Assembly: GCA_949282835.1 (NCBI GenBank)
Contig: CASDQU010000074.1
Coordinates: 1-50,550 of the forward strand
Direction: 5' to 3'
DNA: 50,550 nt
Origin: an uncultured Bacillota bacterium
Lineage (GTDB): Bacteria; Bacillota; Clostridia; Christensenellales; UBA1242
Of this stretch, positions 31,953 to 41,379 are shown piece after piece (position 1 is the first letter of the stretch; the number at the start of each line of letters is the position of its first letter). A model generated the notes under the pieces. It was not told where the DNA came from, searched no databases, and saw only the letters and a list, made by a program, of their open reading frames with translations. The translations under genes and the position numbers were made by a program.

Positions 31953-32678
31953 TTAAGATGTCAATTTATTTCTCAAATTAGTTAGAATTTTATTTTCCAG
32001 TCGTGAAACTTGAACCTGCGAAATTTTAAGCACTTTTGCTATTTCACTTTGCGTCTTATCAAAATAATAACGAAGCATAATTATCTTTTTTTCTCTATTG
32101 TTAAGAGATTTTATTATTTCTTTAATAGCAAGGTTATCAATCATTTTCACATTATAATCTTCTTCACTCTCAATTCGGTCTATCATACTCAAGGAATCAC
32201 CATCATCTTCTATAGGCGTATAAATTGATACTGGCATTTTAGCAGAGTCCATTGCCATGACAATTTCTTGTTCTTCAACTTTAAAATGTTTTGCAAGCTC
32301 TTCTATGTTAGGCTTTCTTTGATTGATTTCAACAAAATTTTCGATATACTTGTTAATTTGCAAATTTAAACTTTTTAGAGCGCGTGACACCTTAATCATT
32401 CCATCATCACGCATAAATCTTTTGATTTCTCCTATCACCATTGGCACAACATATGTTGAAAACTTTACTCCAAACTCAGCATTAAAGTTTTTTATAGCTT
32501 TTAAAAAGCCCATACAACCTAGCTGATAAAGGTCATCATATTCAACCCCTTTATCTTTGAAGCGCTTAATTAGGCTTTTTATCAACGGTGAATTTTCTTC
32601 TAGAAGCATCTTTTTTGCTTCCTGGTCGCCCTGCTGAGATAACTTTACCAAGCGCAAGATTTCTTCATTATCAAGCAT
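31953..32678 (-). CDS. sigF: Sporulation sigma factor SigF
   Basis: 241 aa group-3 sigma (YDDLYQLGCMGFLKAIKNF; region 4 SQSEIAKVLKISQVQVSRLE). Directly downstream of spoIIAA-spoIIAB. Confidence 0.9.
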   Translation of the reverse strand: MLDNEEILRLVKLSQQGDQEAKKMLLEENSPLIKSLIKRFKDKGVEYDDLYQLGCMGFLKAIKNFNAEFGVKFSTYVVPMVIGEIKRFMRDDGMIKVSRALKSLNLQINKYIENFVEINQRKPNIEELAKHFKVEEQEIVMAMDSAKMPVSIYTPIEDDGDSLSMIDRIESEEDYNVKMIDNLAIKEIIKSLNNREKKIIMLRYYFDKTQSEIAKVLKISQVQVSRLENKILTNLRNKLTS

Positions 32679-33117
32679 TGCCCGCCTGCATGAGGCTGTT
32701 TGCGCCTATTCGTTTCGTCATGGTAACTGTAAGGCCGTTACCACTTGCAACATCAACACTATCCATAAAACTTTCCATAACGGCAAAACCCATTCCGCTG
32801 CGTTCTTCGCTAGGCTTCGTTGTATAAAAAGGTTCGCGCGCCTTTGCAATATCCTTTATTCCAATCCCATTATCTTTAACTATTATTTTGACTAAATTCC
32901 CCTCTATTTCGCACCTAACTGTTACAGTTCCCAAATGTTTTGGATAGGCATGAACGACACAATTTGTTACCGCTTCCGACACCGCTGTCTTTATGTCACC
33001 AATCTCATCAATAGAAGGATTAAGCCCTACACAAAATGCAGCGACACAAACTCTTGCAAAACTTTCATTAGCCGATATTGCCTTAAAAGTTACTTCCATA
33101 AAATTACCTTTATTCAT
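32671..33117 (-). CDS. spoIIAB: Anti-sigma F factor SpoIIAB (serine kinase)
   Basis: NESFARVCVAAF, N-box EAVTNCVVHAY, G-boxes DNGIGI and GMGFAVM. The start is taken at the ATG 5 nt after GGAGGT (the ORF opens at 33129). Confidence 0.92.
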   Translation of the reverse strand: MNKGNFMEVTFKAISANESFARVCVAAFCVGLNPSIDEIGDIKTAVSEAVTNCVVHAYPKHLGTVTVRCEIEGNLVKIIVKDNGIGIKDIAKAREPFYTTKPSEERSGMGFAVMESFMDSVDVASGNGLTVTMTKRIGANSLMQAGNA

Positions 33118-33128
33118 ACTTACCTCCA

Positions 33129-33437
33129 TTACACTATCTTTGGCATTATGTTGTATAGCCCGCTTATTTTAAAAATCTTTTCTGCATGTCGAGATGGATT
33201 ACAGATGAATATTGGAATATGTTTTAATTTCATTTTTTTATATCTTCCTATTAAAACGCCAATACCAGTGCTATCCATAAACTCTAATTCTGATAAATCT
33301 ATTATTATTTGATTGAATTGTCCTTGTGAAAATATTAGGTCAAGCTCATTTTTAACATGTGTCGCGCTATTTTCATCAAGCTCACCACACATGACTACAT
33401 AAAGAGTGTTTTTATAAATTTTGCTTTTTATATTCAT
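33129..33437 (-). CDS. spoIIAA: Anti-sigma F factor antagonist SpoIIAA (STAS domain)
   Basis: 102 aa; phosphorylatable-serine motif FMDSTGIGVLIG. Confidence 0.92.
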   Translation of the reverse strand: MNIKSKIYKNTLYVVMCGELDENSATHVKNELDLIFSQGQFNQIIIDLSELEFMDSTGIGVLIGRYKKMKLKHIPIFICNPSRHAEKIFKISGLYNIMPKIV

Positions 33438-35562: not shown

Positions 35563-36327
35563 TTATTCTTCATCGCTGTCCGAATAGAAATCAAATGCTT
35601 TCATAATTTCGCTCAAGTCATCTTTTGGATTTATAGCTTCTTTTAAATCAAATCCACTAGACTGAATTTTTAATGATTTTGGTTGCTCTTCAAGTGGCTG
35701 TGTGTTTAAAAATTTATCAACAAGTGTATCGTACTGGTCACCCTCTTTAAGCTCTATATCACATACAGGCTTTATTTGACTTGGCGAGTGTTCTTTAGTT
35801 TCACTCTTTAATTCTCTAAAATCATTGCGTTCAATTTTTATTTCCCTAGGCTGCTGACTAACTTTCTTTTCTTGCATTTTGTTTAGCAACATTCTCATAG
35901 GGTCATTTTCAGTACCTGTATTTACAATTTCATTACGCTTAGCTTCTGTTTGCGCCAAAATCGCCTCAATATCTGTTACCAACTTTTTGTAGTTACTATT
36001 TAAAAGAATACCAGGATATTGGCTATTTAACTGCTCTAAGAAAGTTTGCATATGTAAATAAACCATTCGAAGTTGTTCGCCACGCAAAACTTCAATATTT
36101 CTATTGCCTTCAGCTTGAAAGCGTTTAAAAGATTCAAGCACCGTCATAATATTTTTTTCGCGGCGTTCAATTTCTACAGATTTATTTTTAAAGTCTAAAA
36201 TTTTCTTTTCTGCTTCTAAAACTTTTAGTTTCTCTTCCATCAAAGCTTTTTCATGAGCAGCTCTCATTTGAGCAATATATTCATCAACTTCCTTTTTTTT
36301 ATACCCATTAAATTCTGTAGAAAACAT
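35563..36327 (-). CDS. DivIVA-domain protein
   Basis: N-terminal FSTEFNGYKKKEVDEYI (the FxxxxxGY..eVDxfl DivIVA signature), coiled coil, acidic C-terminus. Confidence 0.75.
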   Translation of the reverse strand: MFSTEFNGYKKKEVDEYIAQMRAAHEKALMEEKLKVLEAEKKILDFKNKSVEIERREKNIMTVLESFKRFQAEGNRNIEVLRGEQLRMVYLHMQTFLEQLNSQYPGILLNSNYKKLVTDIEAILAQTEAKRNEIVNTGTENDPMRMLLNKMQEKKVSQQPREIKIERNDFRELKSETKEHSPSQIKPVCDIELKEGDQYDTLVDKFLNTQPLEEQPKSLKIQSSGFDLKEAINPKDDLSEIMKAFDFYSDSDEE

Positions 36328-36346: not shown

Positions 36347-36832
36347 CTATAATAAAAAGTAACTTCCCATTAATAATAGCACATCTATTAATACTATTGC
36401 AAGAAAAATTAAAAGAGAAATCAAATTTAAAAGATATAAAAAACAAAATATAGCGAGGAAAAATAGCGAAAAAGATATTCCAAAGTGATAATTTTGTTTA
36501 AAAATAAATCCGCTACATAACGATGCAATCACAAAGGACAAAATTATAAATACAGAATAAAAATTTGTGATATCAAGAAAATAACTGTAAAAATATAATA
36601 CCCCTATACTCAAAAGCAAGCTTCCTAAATAACAAGAGGAGTCAAGATGGAAAAGTATGCTTCGTACTATCAAATGTCCACCAACAGCAATTAGAAATGA
36701 GAAAAACCACAGATTGTGAATTGATAAAACTGTGAAAGATAAGGCTAGGCTAATTAAAAATAAACTGCTATTTATAAGAAAAGACAACTTTAAAATTGTT
36801 GTCTTTTTTACCGATAATATCTTTCCTTTCAT
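36347..36832 (-). CDS. Hypothetical polytopic membrane protein (about 5 TM)
   Basis: 161 aa, hydrophobic throughout, no recognisable motif. Confidence 0.5.
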   Translation of the reverse strand: MKGKILSVKKTTILKLSFLINSSLFLISLALSFTVLSIHNLWFFSFLIAVGGHLIVRSILFHLDSSCYLGSLLLSIGVLYFYSYFLDITNFYSVFIILSFVIASLCSGFIFKQNYHFGISFSLFFLAIFCFLYLLNLISLLIFLAIVLIDVLLLMGSYFLL

Positions 36833-36865: not shown

Positions 36866-37924
36866 CTATTGACTATCTTTTTTATCTTCATTTTTTGATG
36901 AATTTTCTTGTTTTTTGTCGCCAACCACTTCTTCAGGATTTTCTTTGCCAGCTACTTTTTCTTCTATGCTTACATCGTTATCATTAATTTCTTTGTCTGC
37001 TTTTGACTTAGTCAAATCATCTTCAATCTTATTATTGTCAAGTTGTTTTAGTTTATTTTGCCTTTTCTCCTCTTTCTTTGCCTGCCTTTTTGCTCTCTCT
37101 TCAATCTCGCTTTGTATATTTAATTGATATCGAGATTTTAAATCTTTAATTGTTTTAATCTTGCCTTTTCTATGCAAAATTTCAGTTACCACTAGCATAA
37201 TCACCCCAAAAGCAATAAGCAATATTGAAAGAAGCTGTGATACCTTTATTGAACCTAAATATAGACTATCTCCTCTTAAAGCTTCAATCCAAGCTCTGCC
37301 CACTCCATAGATAATAAAATATAGACACATGATAGACCCGCGATATTTCATTTTATCTTTTCGCAAAAGTAAAAGCAAAATAACAAAAGTCATCAAATCC
37401 CATAGACATTCATAAAAGAAAGTTGATAAATGCCAAACTCCATTTATTTTAGTTGATAAAGGAAACCAAGTTACAGAAGGGTCATTAACTGCAATACCAT
37501 AGCAACAGCCCGCAAAATAGCAACCTATTCTCCCTATCGCTTGCCCTAATACAAGGCTTGGCACGGCTATATCACCCACATCTAAAAAATTCTTTTTATG
37601 AATAAGGCAATATAAAACTATACCAAGTGCGCCGCCTATCACTCCGCCATAGATTGCCATTCCGCCTTCCCAAATTTTAAAAATATCCCAAAACGAATTA
37701 AATTCATCTAAGCTAAAAAGTACATAATATATTCTTGCGCCTATTATAGACAATGGCAAAACATAACAAGCGATTATTAATAAATCGTCTACTTTAAGTC
37801 CGCGCAACTTTGCATTTTTACAAGCAACAAAAACACCTATAGCCATGCCTAAAGCTATCATAAAACCATAGTAAGTAATATCTAAACCAAAAAATGTGAA
37901 ATATTTATCGTAAAATCCAAACAT
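36866..37924 (-). CDS. lgt: Prolipoprotein diacylglyceryl transferase, with a charged C-terminal extension of about 100 aa
   Basis: GGMAIYGGVIGG and GRIGCYFAGCCYG (variant of the Lgt GR.GN motif). The TM topology is typical of Lgt, and the K/E/D-rich tail follows residue ~250. Confidence 0.85.
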   Translation of the reverse strand: MFGFYDKYFTFFGLDITYYGFMIALGMAIGVFVACKNAKLRGLKVDDLLIIACYVLPLSIIGARIYYVLFSLDEFNSFWDIFKIWEGGMAIYGGVIGGALGIVLYCLIHKKNFLDVGDIAVPSLVLGQAIGRIGCYFAGCCYGIAVNDPSVTWFPLSTKINGVWHLSTFFYECLWDLMTFVILLLLLRKDKMKYRGSIMCLYFIIYGVGRAWIEALRGDSLYLGSIKVSQLLSILLIAFGVIMLVVTEILHRKGKIKTIKDLKSRYQLNIQSEIEERAKRQAKKEEKRQNKLKQLDNNKIEDDLTKSKADKEINDNDVSIEEKVAGKENPEEVVGDKKQENSSKNEDKKDSQ

Positions 37925-38098
37925 ACTTTAATTATAATCACTACAGGCAATCATTGTCAATGATTTTCACTTTTATAAATATTTTTTTTTAAAAAAAGGA
38001 AGTTTTGGGTACAATTTTTATACTAAAGATTTTTTAAAATAATTAAAAATACAAGATATGCAAAATTTTTAATAAACAATTTACATATCTTGTATTAG

Positions 38099-39238
38099 CT
38101 AAATATTTTTACAAATTTTTAATATGTCTTGACTGAGGAATTTGTCTTGTTTATCTTTTTCGTTATAACCTAGTATAAGAGAAATATTCCCTCCATTTTT
38201 ATAAGCCATACCAAGTGAGACAATCTTTTTAATCACAACTATGCTAGGTTTTTTATGCCCTTCTTCATCTTCTTCTTTAACAAAACATTTGTCAAGAACG
38301 CGCATAATTTCACATATATCCAAGATATAGAAAAGTACATTCTTGCCCTGTTGAGATAACCCTTGAACATATTGAATAGAATCTACAATACTATTGAAAT
38401 TAGCTTCATTTGATGTGCCATACTTAGTAGTAAAATTTTCAAAATCTACTGACTTAAAATAAATTTGGTCTTCAAAAGAAGTATTAGTTCCAAGCACGAC
38501 TAGTTTTATATCATTCTCATTGCAGTACTTAGATAAATTGATAAAATCTTCATTTTCATAAATATCGTTTTCAAGTAGAATACTATTGCGTCTTCCTTCA
38601 TATACAATGCCTTCACCATAAGGAATGGTCTTTTGCGATATAATTTCATCACCTTTTTCAAAATGATTTAAACTATACTCTTCTGCATTAATATTATTTA
38701 TGCTAAGTATTTCACTGGCAACATATTGGCTTTGATTTTCGGTGCTTTGTGCCAATGCTTTAACCTTGTCGCCTACCTGCAATAAATTGGCATATTTAAT
38801 ATCTTTCACAAAAACATATGCTTGTAATGCAGCATCATAGAATTGCTTGTCTGAATTGTAAATTCTTGTAATTCCACTACTTTCAACTTTATTCGCTGTG
38901 CTAGATTTTTTACTATAATTTGGTGCCGCTTGTGCAAAAGTTATAATATTTTCGAATAGAAGTGGTTTAGCGTCTTCCTCTTTATAATTGTTTGCAAGTG
39001 TATTTAATATATCATCAATAGTTGAGAGTTTTTTGCATGGTCTTCCTTTTCTTTTGCCTATATCATCTACTATTTCGCCCTTCTCAAATTTCATAAGAAT
39101 AAGCTTAATTAACTCATCTCTTTTTTTTGTTGTTGGCGAGGTTATACCAAGTTCTCTTGCTAGTCCCCTCAACTCAAAAACTCCTAGTTGTCGAACTAGC
39201 AGTTCCTTACCTTCTCTTTGGTCTTTCTTCATTTGCAT
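38099..39238 (-). CDS. Rho-like protein lacking a Walker A motif (Rho N-terminal domain + OB-like segment + degenerate, truncated RecA-like core)
   Basis: Segment-by-segment similarity to B. subtilis Rho as recalled (see finding). No GxxxxGK[ST] anywhere in the 379 aa. Confidence 0.55.
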   Translation of the reverse strand: MQMKKDQREGKELLVRQLGVFELRGLARELGITSPTTKKRDELIKLILMKFEKGEIVDDIGKRKGRPCKKLSTIDDILNTLANNYKEEDAKPLLFENIITFAQAAPNYSKKSSTANKVESSGITRIYNSDKQFYDAALQAYVFVKDIKYANLLQVGDKVKALAQSTENQSQYVASEILSINNINAEEYSLNHFEKGDEIISQKTIPYGEGIVYEGRRNSILLENDIYENEDFINLSKYCNENDIKLVVLGTNTSFEDQIYFKSVDFENFTTKYGTSNEANFNSIVDSIQYVQGLSQQGKNVLFYILDICEIMRVLDKCFVKEEDEEGHKKPSIVVIKKIVSLGMAYKNGGNISLILGYNEKDKQDKFLSQDILKICKNI

Positions 39239-39256
39239 ATTCTCCTAATTATTAAA

Positions 39257-39285
39257 ATTCTAAAATAGTATTTACAATTTGTCAA
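39257..39285 (-). promoter_or_regulatory. Sigma-A promoter of the Rho-like gene
   Basis: Minus strand TTGACA, 17 nt, TAGAAT, then AGGAG about 6 nt before the ATG. Confidence 0.6.
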
Positions 39286-39292
39286 CTATTTT

Positions 39293-40330
39293 TCACCAAA
39301 TAGGAATAAAATTGATTATAACGCCTAATACAATAGATAATATAAGTAATATTACACTAATCAGTATATTAAGCCATGTCTTTTTGTAATTAACAGTAAA
39401 TAGCACTATAAGTCCAACTCCAGCTCCTGCACTTAATCCTGCTACTAAAGCAGGAAAAATAAGCACGCCTTCCATAAATAATTCCACTAAAAAAACTGAA
39501 GCGGCACAATTTGGAATTAGCCCTATTACACAAGCAAGCAAAATTTGCACATAGCTATTATCTGTAAAGAATTTTTGTAATGGCTCTAATCCGCCGCAAT
39601 ATCCTCTAATTAAATTAATTGCAATGGTTGCTATTAATACATAAGCGGCAATTATAAGAGTATGATGAAGCGCATCTAAAAATATATTTGTTGCACAGCA
39701 GTGTGAGTGTGTATGTTTATGTCCTTCATCCTCTTCATGAGCATGGTCGCATTTGCAACTTTGCCACCATTTATGTTTATGATTTTCTTGTTTTTTGGCA
39801 ATAGTCTTTGCTTTTATCTCTTCAGAAGGATTTTCTGTCTCTTGATTAGATAACTCATTACTTATAGGTTCAATTATATTTTCTTCATGTTTATCATGAT
39901 ATTCCTTTAAAACAACCTTTTTCTTGGTTATTAGCCGTATTATGCCATCTATTAAATAGCCTATTATAATCGCATAAACTACCTTTATAGCTATCATGAT
40001 TAACAGACTCGGTATAAAACGAGGCTGTGATATCATAAGTGGAATTGCCTCATCACTTGTAGCAATAAATACTGCAATTAATGTCCCCAAAGTTACCATT
40101 CTTCGCGAATAAAGTTGGCTCATAAGTGATGAAAATCCGCATTGAGGAATACAGCCTAAAAAAGCTCCTATTACTGGGCCTGCCTTTTTTGTCTTATGTA
40201 AAATCTTGGAATATTTTTCATTGTCATTATGAGAAAAATACCCAACAAGTAAATATGCAAGATAAAGGATAGGCACAACATATAATGTGTCTAAAAGCGC
40301 GTCTAATAACCCATCCCAAAATATCTCCAT
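39293..40330 (-). CDS. Putative 10-TM heavy-metal exporter (ArsP_2 / DUF2899-like) with a His/Cys-rich loop
   Basis: GCIPQCGFSS...ATSDEAIP in the first half and GLIPNCAAS in the second half (internal duplication). Central loop HKHKWWQSCKCDHAHEEDEGHKHTHSHCC. Confidence 0.6.
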   Translation of the reverse strand: MEIFWDGLLDALLDTLYVVPILYLAYLLVGYFSHNDNEKYSKILHKTKKAGPVIGAFLGCIPQCGFSSLMSQLYSRRMVTLGTLIAVFIATSDEAIPLMISQPRFIPSLLIMIAIKVVYAIIIGYLIDGIIRLITKKKVVLKEYHDKHEENIIEPISNELSNQETENPSEEIKAKTIAKKQENHKHKWWQSCKCDHAHEEDEGHKHTHSHCCATNIFLDALHHTLIIAAYVLIATIAINLIRGYCGGLEPLQKFFTDNSYVQILLACVIGLIPNCAASVFLVELFMEGVLIFPALVAGLSAGAGVGLIVLFTVNYKKTWLNILISVILLILSIVLGVIINFIPIW

Positions 40331-40351
40331 TACATCTATCCTATCTTAATT

Positions 40352-40379
40352 ATTTTATTGCAACATTTAAGTTTTGCAA
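40352..40379 (-). promoter_or_regulatory. Possible promoter of the metal exporter gene, with twin TTGCAA palindromes
   Basis: Minus strand TTGCAA, 16 nt, TAAAAT. A second TTGCAA abuts the -10 element. Confidence 0.4.
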
Positions 40380-40430
40380 GTTATTTTAAAATTTTCTATT
40401 TTTTCAATAATTGCTACTAAGTTTTCCTTA

Positions 40431-40460
40431 AATAAAGCACCATGGTTTTGGTGCTTTATT
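40431..40460 (-). terminator. Hairpin overlapping the stop codon of the solenoid gene (possible terminator, weak T-run)
   Basis: AATAAAGCACC / GGTGCTTTATT: perfect 11-bp stem, 8-nt loop. Confidence 0.4.
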
Positions 40461-41379
40461 CTCCGCCCTCTTCACTTGTATCTCCTATTTTTAGCTGTCT
40501 AGCTTTCTTCTTTTTGAATGTCTCTTTTTGAGTTACATCTTTTTCTTCTACATTATCCTTAATTTCTTCTACTTCTTGCTGCGTGGTATCTTCACTATCA
40601 GCATTTTCATCTTGAACTGTAGGAATTTCCTTTCCCTGCCTATATTCTGCCATTCGTTTAGCAGATTCTTGAGGAGAATATAAAATTATAGTTTGCTTGT
40701 CTTGATAACCAATTTCGCCATTCATATTGGCAGATATCAAAGCTTTGCCCACCATTTCATTGATTTTGCCATTATTAAAAGTGGAAACTTCGCTATTATC
40801 GGCAAATAAATCTATCTTACCATTATTAATAGTCCCAACTCGTCCATTATTTAACAAATAAGTAATATTGCCGTCAAGCATACTTACAAGATGAGCATTA
40901 TTTTCAATCCCAGTGATTTTGCCACTTATCATGGTGACTATTCTAGCCTTATTTCTCACAAACATAACCTCACCATTTGTAAGAGTAGCAAGCTCCGCTT
41001 TGTCATCTACAAAACGAATAAAGCCGCCATTCATAGTACCAATACTAGCCTTACCTTTAATATAGTCAATAGTGCAAGTGTTAATAGTAGTAATAGACGC
41101 TTTGCCGCAGACCATAGTAATTTTCCCGCTTTTTAAAAGTCCTATTTTAGCTTTACCGCAAAGCATATCTATTTCGCCATTTTCAACCATTTGAACTCTT
41201 GCCTTGCCAGAAATCTCTTTGATAGTACTATTAAAACATTCAAGAATAATAGCATTGCCTCCAATAAAGACATTTTGGCATTTATTTAATATGTGAACTC
41301 CATTTGTCAAAGTAAAATTTGCTTCTTCATCATGAATAATTGGATCTATGATTTTGTCGCCCTTTTTAAACATACACAT
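40456..41379 (-). CDS. Repeat protein: about 10 tandem 17-residue units (predicted beta-solenoid, bactofilin-like architecture) plus a disordered charged tail
   Basis: Turn positions G-K-A / (N)G-x-I alternate with 10+7 spacing from residue 58 to 224. The C-terminal ~75 aa are E/D/K/Q-rich. Confidence 0.6.
   Translation of the reverse strand: MCMFKKGDKIIDPIIHDEEANFTLTNGVHILNKCQNVFIGGNAIILECFNSTIKEISGKARVQMVENGEIDMLCGKAKIGLLKSGKITMVCGKASITTINTCTIDYIKGKASIGTMNGGFIRFVDDKAELATLTNGEVMFVRNKARIVTMISGKITGIENNAHLVSMLDGNITYLLNNGRVGTINNGKIDLFADNSEVSTFNNGKINEMVGKALISANMNGEIGYQDKQTIILYSPQESAKRMAEYRQGKEIPTVQDENADSEDTTQQEVEEIKDNVEEKDVTQKETFKKKKARQLKIGDTSEEGGE

Follow-up and report, generated by a model that had tools for sequence, protein, structure and literature searches.

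A probable motor-less descendant of the transcription terminator Rho in uncultured gut Clostridia

Among ring-shaped RNA translocases Rho is the textbook case, and termination is generally taken to depend on its hydrolysis of ATP. How far Rho works from a stand-by, allosteric position on RNA polymerase (RNAP), as opposed to an RNA-chasing mode, is still argued (PMC12360218). Surveys of Rho and a 2025 review describe insertions, duplicated RNA-binding domains, the truncated but catalytic Rho2 and proteins that hold Rho_N only (PMC11347177, PMC13613805, PMC12360218), and about 30% of Bacillota, many Clostridia among them, are without a detectable functional Rho (PMC11347177, PMC13613805). Here we analyse a 50,550-nucleotide stretch of an uncultured bacterium of the Clostridia (GenBank contig CASDQU010000074.1, assembly GCA_949282835.1), referred to as a whole as the window, and in it one gene at positions 38099–39238 of the minus strand, on which all other features given below also lie. 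The product of this gene is almost certainly an ATPase-dead descendant of Rho, homologous to it over all three domains. Judged from sequence and modelling, the gene as a whole is best explained as encoding a motor-less Rho scaffold that would act as a passive binder and would be the remnant, still in place, of the lineage's own rho; we put the probability of this reading at about 0.55.

Recognition of the protein as Rho needed a full canonical Rho profile. An hhalign comparison with the single E. coli Rho sequence, itself checked against the Protein Data Bank (PDB), returned a probability of 10.7%, while a profile of 25 canonical Rho sequences gave 98.2% with E 4.9e-14 over 318 columns, aligning residues 16–356 with E. 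coli Rho 7–317. An AlphaFold2 model built from 55 homologues reached a predicted local distance difference test (pLDDT) score of 85.7 and a predicted template modelling (pTM) score of 0.74. When this model was compared with the PDB by Foldseek, as the first-pass annotation of the sequence had proposed, Rho accounted for all of the top 50 matches (about 390 columns aligned, E 1.9e-14 at best). The two E values exclude chance as the source of the likeness. The five segments that the first-pass annotation had matched to Rho all reappeared, both in hhalign with the 25-sequence profile and in a MAFFT alignment of 115 sequences for comparison with Rho.

Domain models recover less of this. Pfam Rho_N matched the window protein at 20.6 bits (E 4e-4), under its gathering score of 24.9, and matched 55/55 members of the family alignment (best E 3.7e-6). 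Rho_RNA_bind was not reached by the window protein; distant relatives do pass its threshold. The whole-protein Rho equivalog model TIGR00767 scored 14.2 bits (E 0.015) against a curated cutoff of 509.45. With the window protein as query, phmmer found nothing in the PDB, and a hidden Markov model (HMM) of the family found M. tuberculosis Rho alone, at E 0.19. Intermediates connect the two ends. An exhaustive family-profile HMM search returned 1052 cluster representatives, 438 of them at E <= 1e-10, and the profile matched P0226, P0222, P0202, P0186 and others at E 1e-23 to 1e-29 (P-numbers are our labels for database proteins and relatives, L-numbers those for the loci compared). These distant proteins are matched by the Pfam models Rho_N, Rho_RNA_bind and ATP-synt_ab and by those of NCBIfam for Rho (E 1e-88 to 1e-15); E. 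coli Rho finds 30 such relatives directly by BLASTP, and P0186 aligns pairwise with the window gene over its full length at E 8e-12. Thus structure, profile–profile comparison and intermediates all carry the match beyond Rho_N into the OB fold and the RecA-type core, and the refuting outcome named by the first-pass annotation, a match of Rho_N only, did not arise. Leftovers of synteny also tie the locus to those of canonical rho.

At the N-terminus, residues 18–53 (39080–39187) form a Rho_N-type helix-extension-helix (HeH) domain with the reading LGVFELRGLARELGxxSPTTKKRDELIxLIL; hhalign sets residues 16–53 opposite Rho residues 7–45. This is the most conserved segment of the family, with a mean top-residue frequency of 0.80 compared with 0.32–0.57 elsewhere. 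It is followed at residues 62–71 (39026–39055) by a basic, AT-hook-like motif, [KR][KR]GRP[FY]KK[LI], in whose core 55/55 sequences have G65, R66, P67 and K69. The shorter form GRPxK occurs in 194 of the 200 full-length relatives that we sampled, and one subgroup of the canonical Rho proteins of Clostridia has it too. The isoelectric point (pI) is 9.5 for the N-terminal 116 residues and about 4.9 for the remainder. Residues 117–190 (38669–38890) correspond to the OB fold that is the primary RNA-binding domain of Rho, as placed by MAFFT and hhalign, and form five strands in the AlphaFold2 model. Among the 115 aligned sequences, the aromatic residues of this domain are kept at the position of F64 in 85/115 and of Y80 in 74/115, and at that of Y110 in under half (45/115). 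The segment SGITRIY had been read as the counterpart of the RNP-like GFGFLR; it is in fact OB strand beta-1 (GVLEIL in E. coli), and the RNP1 equivalent is DKQFYD at residues 130–135.

The remainder of the chain, residues 204–379 (38102–38629), is a RecA-type core derived from the Rho ATPase domain, in which the catalytic apparatus is missing piece by piece. Absence of a P-loop had been claimed from the outset and is borne out: no G/AxxxxGK[ST] stands in register with the Rho Walker A motif (E. coli 178–185), where the window protein reads LENDIYEN, and the loss is conserved, as 199/200 full-length relatives lack Walker A and only P0186 keeps it in register. The register first assigned to the lost P-loop did require correction, since GRRN (215–218) corresponds to Rho GRGQR(G), ahead of the P-loop, and it is LENDIYEN that takes the place of APPKAGKT. 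Over this stretch, residues 215–230 (38549–38596), GRRN is invariant in 55/55 sequences and the former P-loop has the family reading xLxEDLYEN, with E228 (53 Glu and 2 Asp in 55 sequences) at the position of the Walker lysine K184. The catalytic glutamate E211 is replaced by T253 and the arginine valve R212 by S254, within the family consensus NTSFE, while E256 aligns with Rho E214 at the end of the DERPEE-like strand. The strand equivalent to Walker B ends with the invariant D307, which MAFFT sets one column from D265. The region of the Q-loop (278–290) is gapped and is the most variable segment of the family (top-residue frequency 0.32), and at the R-loop (322–326) the K326 column is gapped in 96/115 sequences. 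The chain ends opposite E. coli residue ~343 of 419 and has no C-terminal subdomain; the first-pass annotation had noticed the truncation and set it at 60–70 residues, whereas about 75 are gone. The column of the arginine finger R366 is accordingly empty in 109/115 sequences. The family retains 26 invariant positions, and those of the C-terminal part (G215, R217, N218, E256, D307 and D362, with E228 nearly so) line the former nucleotide pocket. Because Walker A, the catalytic glutamate, the arginine valve, both RNA-gripping loops and the arginine finger are gone, no ATP hydrolysis or translocation in the manner of Rho is to be expected; by established Rho enzymology, a protein of this sequence cannot run the Rho ATPase and translocation cycle.

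The gene belongs to a coherent family. Database searches gave 96 homologues of about 375 residues; the length of 93 homologues lies within 370–391, and each of 59 species-representative genomes carries a single copy. All 59 belong to uncultured Clostridia of the gut, the hosts being human, mouse, deer, rabbit and ruminants. The ratio of non-synonymous to synonymous substitution rates (dN/dS) was 0.046–0.116 in six close pairs, the same range as for lgt and the adjacent permease. The protein is under strong purifying selection and is not a pseudogene.

Signals for expression surround the coding sequence. The open reading frame (ORF) holds 379 codons from the first ATG and 377 from a second ATG at 39232, from which the protein begins MKKDQ. 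The second is probably the true start, as the Shine-Dalgarno sequence AGGAG (39242–39246, read directly from the sequence) lies 9 nt from it and 3 nt from the first ATG at 39238, and the database protein P0001, 99% identical to the 379-residue ORF, is 377 residues long. Upstream, a sigma-70-type promoter (39257–39285) consists of the −35 element TTGACA (39285–39280), a 17-nt spacer and the −10 element TAGAAT (39262–39257), matching 11/12 consensus positions; the near-consensus promoter and AGGAG ribosome-binding site first described are thus upheld. In related loci, a TTGAC[AT]-16 to 18-nt-TAxxxT promoter that fits the consensus at 10/12 positions or more precedes the orthologue in 54/58. Five nucleotides past the UAG stop begins an intrinsic terminator (38035–38095), a 16-bp A+T-rich hairpin followed by the U-tract UUUUUAAUUAUUUU. 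The free energy of the hairpin is −18.4 kcal/mol (z = −5.1), and 0/200 shuffled sequences were equally stable; a consensus terminator scan overlooked it because its stem has few G-C pairs. With a promoter and a terminator of its own, the gene is self-contained, and we treat it as monocistronic, with a transcript predicted to run from ~39250 to ~38040. Promoter, ribosome-binding site and terminator together predict that it is apparently expressed, and the earlier view of a gene expressed rather than decayed fits the dN/dS, the constant length and the conserved promoter.

Beyond this family lies a larger clade of more than 400 clusters at 50% identity, in which loss of the motor is graded. Proteins of the P0226 family (locus L060; relatives P0250–P0256) are 38% identical to E. 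coli Rho and keep the C-terminal subdomain and the arginine finger; their P-loop has become TQDKFKKI or APDKFKK and their Walker B aspartate an asparagine. This family, one member of which is annotated as 'hypothetical protein' by NCBI, seems to show the same degeneration at an earlier point. P0186 (L061), with an intact P-loop GERGSGKT, and P0202 (L066, GCA_002919055.1), which has lost it, share the neighbourhood veg-sipL-spoIIR-sleB-ypeB, and P0196, the nearest relative of P0186 at 39% identity, has no P-loop. As sequences go, this mixed pattern and the graded loss imply that the motor was lost repeatedly and independently. The genes for P0186 and P0202 both precede a giant ORF of more than 2400 residues. 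A phage or defence origin of the Rho derivative was considered and dropped: no relative was found on viral contigs (IMG/VR), no PADLOC defence family matched it, and matches to PHROGs were weak and confined to the N-terminus.

Gene order bears on whether the gene descends from its lineage's own rho or from an extra copy. A PF13483 (Lactamase_B_3) gene stands directly before the gene for the P-loop-less P0222, which also adjoins DUF1934. In L070, L072 and L073 it is canonical rho that comes after this PF13483 gene, and in three canonical loci the order is ABC-ABC-prs-x-Lactamase_B_3-rho. Compared with the pair that immediately precedes canonical rho in these loci, the ABC exporter pair of the window shows 42–45% identity, and in L068 an ArsP_2 homologue (34% identity) is found 5.4 kb before canonical rho. 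The window gene is therefore probably the remnant, in situ, of the rho of its lineage, and we lean slightly towards its being the only descendant of rho in its genome. The earlier label of 'paralogue' is unproven, and the remnants of synteny suggest that the gene may instead be the rho of its lineage, still in place. When E. coli Rho, P0226 and P0186 served as tblastn queries, no canonical rho came up in the window or among 1.04 Mb of related loci, which amounts to about 1% of each genome and is uninformative. Base composition was also considered as a guide, because purine bias and purine-ending codons have been reported as a signature of functional Rho in Bacilli (PMC13323073). The window has 56% sense-strand purine and 44.8% purine-ending four-fold codons, and across its genes and loci L001–L073 the values are 53–59% and 35–52%, without separation of canonical-rho loci from motor-less ones. 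The signature did not transfer from Bacilli to the present sample of Clostridia.

The alternative that survives best, though we think it unlikely, is that the genome also holds a canonical Rho and that the window protein, as its paralogue, modulates it, as the first-pass annotation had suggested, by poisoning mixed rings or by competing for RNA at Rho utilization (rut) sites, for NusG or for RNAP. A protein with the Rho subunit fold and the N-terminal module of canonical Clostridial Rho could meet the same partners, and some phyla are known to carry duplicated Rho (PMC11347177). Mixed rings become less plausible once both sides of the inter-subunit ATP site are gone, the P-loop on one and the arginine finger with the C-terminal subdomain on the other. 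Canonical rho was not encountered in the weak test above, synteny places P-loop-less forms at ancestral rho positions, and many Rho-negative species of Clostridia have been reported (PMC13613805).

Under the favoured reading, in which the gene is a motor-less remnant of rho, its product would be a constitutively expressed scaffold, in which the OB fold and the HeH and GRPxKK head would provide the contacts to RNA, DNA or RNA polymerase, and the RecA-like body would serve as a structural or oligomerization platform. The former nucleotide pocket would have been refilled by the conserved polar residues R216/R217, N218, E228, N252, S254, E256 and D307, and the HeH and GRPxKK module would have been inherited from the canonical Clostridial subgroup of Rho. 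Passive binding of nucleic acid or of a transcription complex is, on sequence and model, a proposal to which we give even odds.

Slightly less probable than a coexisting modulator is a DNA-binding, nucleoid-associated protein, which would use its HeH domain (of SAP/LEM-like type) and AT-hook-like GRP motif on an A+T-rich chromosome and for which ancestry in Rho would be irrelevant. HeH and GRPxKK are the most constrained parts of the protein, members of the family have weak matches to the HeH families SAP, Ish1 and Fan1_SAP, the basic charge is concentrated in the N-terminal 116 residues, the window has 32% G+C and the promoter is strong, conserved and of housekeeping type. The same module, however, is present in P-loop-bearing canonical Clostridial Rho, where it presumably serves termination, and selection also acts on the OB and RecA-like domains, which a pure HeH/AT-hook binder would not need. 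This alternative overlaps with the motor-less scaffold, from which it differs solely in the preferred ligand.

That the protein is an active nucleoside triphosphatase (NTPase) or translocase with a non-canonical nucleotide site, and so a divergent but functional Rho, is very improbable. Within the C-terminal domain, conservation does peak at the former active site (GRRN, E228, NTSFE and D307), whose Walker B-like aspartate is invariant; yet the phosphate-binding lysine and threonine, the catalytic glutamate, the arginine valve, the arginine finger and both RNA-gripping loops are gone, a glutamate occupies the Walker lysine position and the score on the Rho equivalog is 14 bits against a cutoff of 509. 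We practically discount the view that the gene is a rho pseudogene in decay, or that a frameshift or an assembly error has disguised a normal rho. Such a view could account for a length below that of Rho, destroyed motifs and long-range evolution faster than that of the neighbours; against it stand the low dN/dS, the narrow length range, the 26 invariant residues, the conserved promoter and terminator, the confidently predicted fold and the lack of any leftover Rho C-terminal coding past the stop, where the hairpin follows at once.

Several observations weigh against a motor-less scaffold that replaced rho in place. Conservation of the OB domain is among the lowest in the protein, and the base-reading residues of the Rho primary site, R66, E108 and R109, are replaced across the family in the MAFFT alignment, which makes RNA binding in the manner of Rho doubtful. 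Over long distances the protein diverges more quickly than its neighbours (median identity about 40% versus 62–72%), a rate compatible with a less demanding role and in keeping with lost enzymatic constraint. The evidence from synteny is loose: the ABC pair is inverted and of other length in the canonical loci, the ArsP_2 gene stands about 5 kb off in one locus, and for the window family itself positional orthology thus depends on two such remnants, which are not proof. Finally, the proposed binding of nucleic acid or RNAP, the oligomeric state and the loss of ATPase activity are read from sequence and from a model of the monomer.

The surroundings of the gene are a housekeeping chromosomal region with clpX, tig, gap, obg, pnp, relA, recJ, spoIIAA-spoIIAB-sigF and lgt. 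Two conserved neighbours lie upstream (39293–41379), which we give as context and not as demonstrated functional partners. The nearer is an ArsP_2-type permease with 10 transmembrane segments (39293–40330) and a His/Cys-rich loop, HKHKWWQSCKCDHAHEEDEGHKHTHSHCC; it stands immediately upstream of the Rho derivative in 58/59 loci. The other (40456–41379) encodes a 307-residue repeat protein of unassigned family, with short repeats rich in G, K and A/I and a predicted beta-rich structure, that has no match in Pfam or PADLOC. Its identity of 57–82% over 56 loci exceeds the conservation of every neighbour. The order of repeat protein, permease and Rho derivative is co-directional in essentially all 59 loci, including those whose downstream genes differ, which may be no more than the general gene-order conservation of the clade. 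Just past the Rho-derivative terminator, a perfect 12/12 promoter (TTGACA-18-TATAAT, 37931–37960) precedes lgt (36866–37924). After lgt, nearly all related loci have genes for a 254-residue protein (35563–36327 in the window) with a weakly DivIVA-like N-terminus (E 0.008) and a 161-residue multi-pass membrane protein (36347–36832), neither of which matches a Pfam family at threshold. Farther on, spoIIAA (STAS), spoIIAB (HATPase_c_2) and sigF (sigma-70 regions 2, 3 and 4) at 31953–33437 resemble an operon, from which the organism is probably a spore former. A link of the Rho derivative to sporulation was considered, given that this operon lies about 5 kb off and that the genes for P0186 and P0202 follow veg-sipL-spoIIR-sleB-ypeB. 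It is weakened by the promoter, which is of the vegetative sigma-A type, and by the adjoining of the sigF operon in merely 13–16/59 loci.

As a natural separation-of-function mutant, the motor-less family would make motor-independent activities of the Rho scaffold testable. It also changes the counting of 'Rho-negative' Firmicutes. Domain surveys demand Pfam matches to Rho_RNA_bind and the ATPase domain (PMC11347177, PMC13613805), and since the family falls below both thresholds, they would score its carriers as lacking Rho. We tentatively extend the case, at clearly less than even odds, to a radiation of gut Clostridia that has no Rho motor at all and carries, under strong purifying selection, an ATPase-dead, truncated Rho at the old rho locus after several independent P-loop losses. 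If so, the Rho scaffold would have a selectable function independent of its motor, for example stand-by binding of RNAP, nascent RNA or DNA through HeH/GRP, and many 'Rho-negative' Bacillota would in fact keep a remnant of Rho.

A full-length P-loop-less Rho derivative is not described in the Rho literature that we searched, including PMC11347177, PMC13613805, PMC12360218 and PMC13323073, and Pfam, NCBIfam, PHROGs and PADLOC hold no model for the family; the first-pass annotation likewise knew of none. The motor-less Rho derivatives of gut Clostridia, defined by HeH, GRPxK, OB fold and a RecA core without Walker A, at about 375 residues and in single copy, all of which the window protein displays, are a large, undescribed group in common uncultured mammalian gut Clostridia, without annotation in the source records and libraries covered here. 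Other departures from Rho differ in kind. Plant RHON1 and the cyanobacterial DUF4912 'Rho-like' proteins also have Rho_N without a motor and are proposed RNA binders (PMC13613805); they have Rho_N only, whereas the window protein also has the Rho OB fold and the RecA-type core. The short form Rho2 (NF041509; group B of D'Heygere 2013, as relayed in PMC11347177) is a second atypical family derived from Rho and is the opposite case, lacking the N-terminal domain and keeping the catalytic residues (PMC11347177); the NF041509 model gave no match at E up to 10. With Rho itself (TIGR00767/NF006886; PDB 1PV4, 3ICE and 7OQH) the window protein shares the domain order of Rho_N helix bundle, OB fold and RecA-type core, and it keeps the GRGQR-like turn, the DERPEE-like strand end and, one column off in the alignment, a Walker B-like aspartate, D307. 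It differs from Rho in a 45-residue helical insert with GRPxKK between the N-terminal domain and the OB fold, and in the loss of Walker A, catalytic glutamate, arginine valve, Q-loop, R-loop lysine, arginine finger and the last ~75 residues. Another comparison is with canonical Clostridial Rho proteins that have an N-terminal insertion (for example P0284, P0299 and P0302), the 'Type 2' of Moreira et al. 2024 (PMC11347177), which have the module FELR...SPT[ST]KK.ELI...GRPPK and part of the neighbourhood in common with the window protein but are 500–560 residues long, with SPPKAGKT, DERPEE, Walker B and the C-terminus intact. In the canonical Rho of L068 and L070–L073, also of 500–560 residues, an AT-hook-like (K)GRGRPPK motif follows the Rho_N domain; the four papers named above give no description of it. 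By sequence, canonical Clostridial Rho with the GRPPK module is likely the ancestor type. Between it and the window protein, the P0226 family, P0222, P0202 and P0196 are likewise Rho with a destroyed Walker A, P0222 at the ancestral rho position; they are longer, at 430–470 residues, and the window family is the most reduced form.

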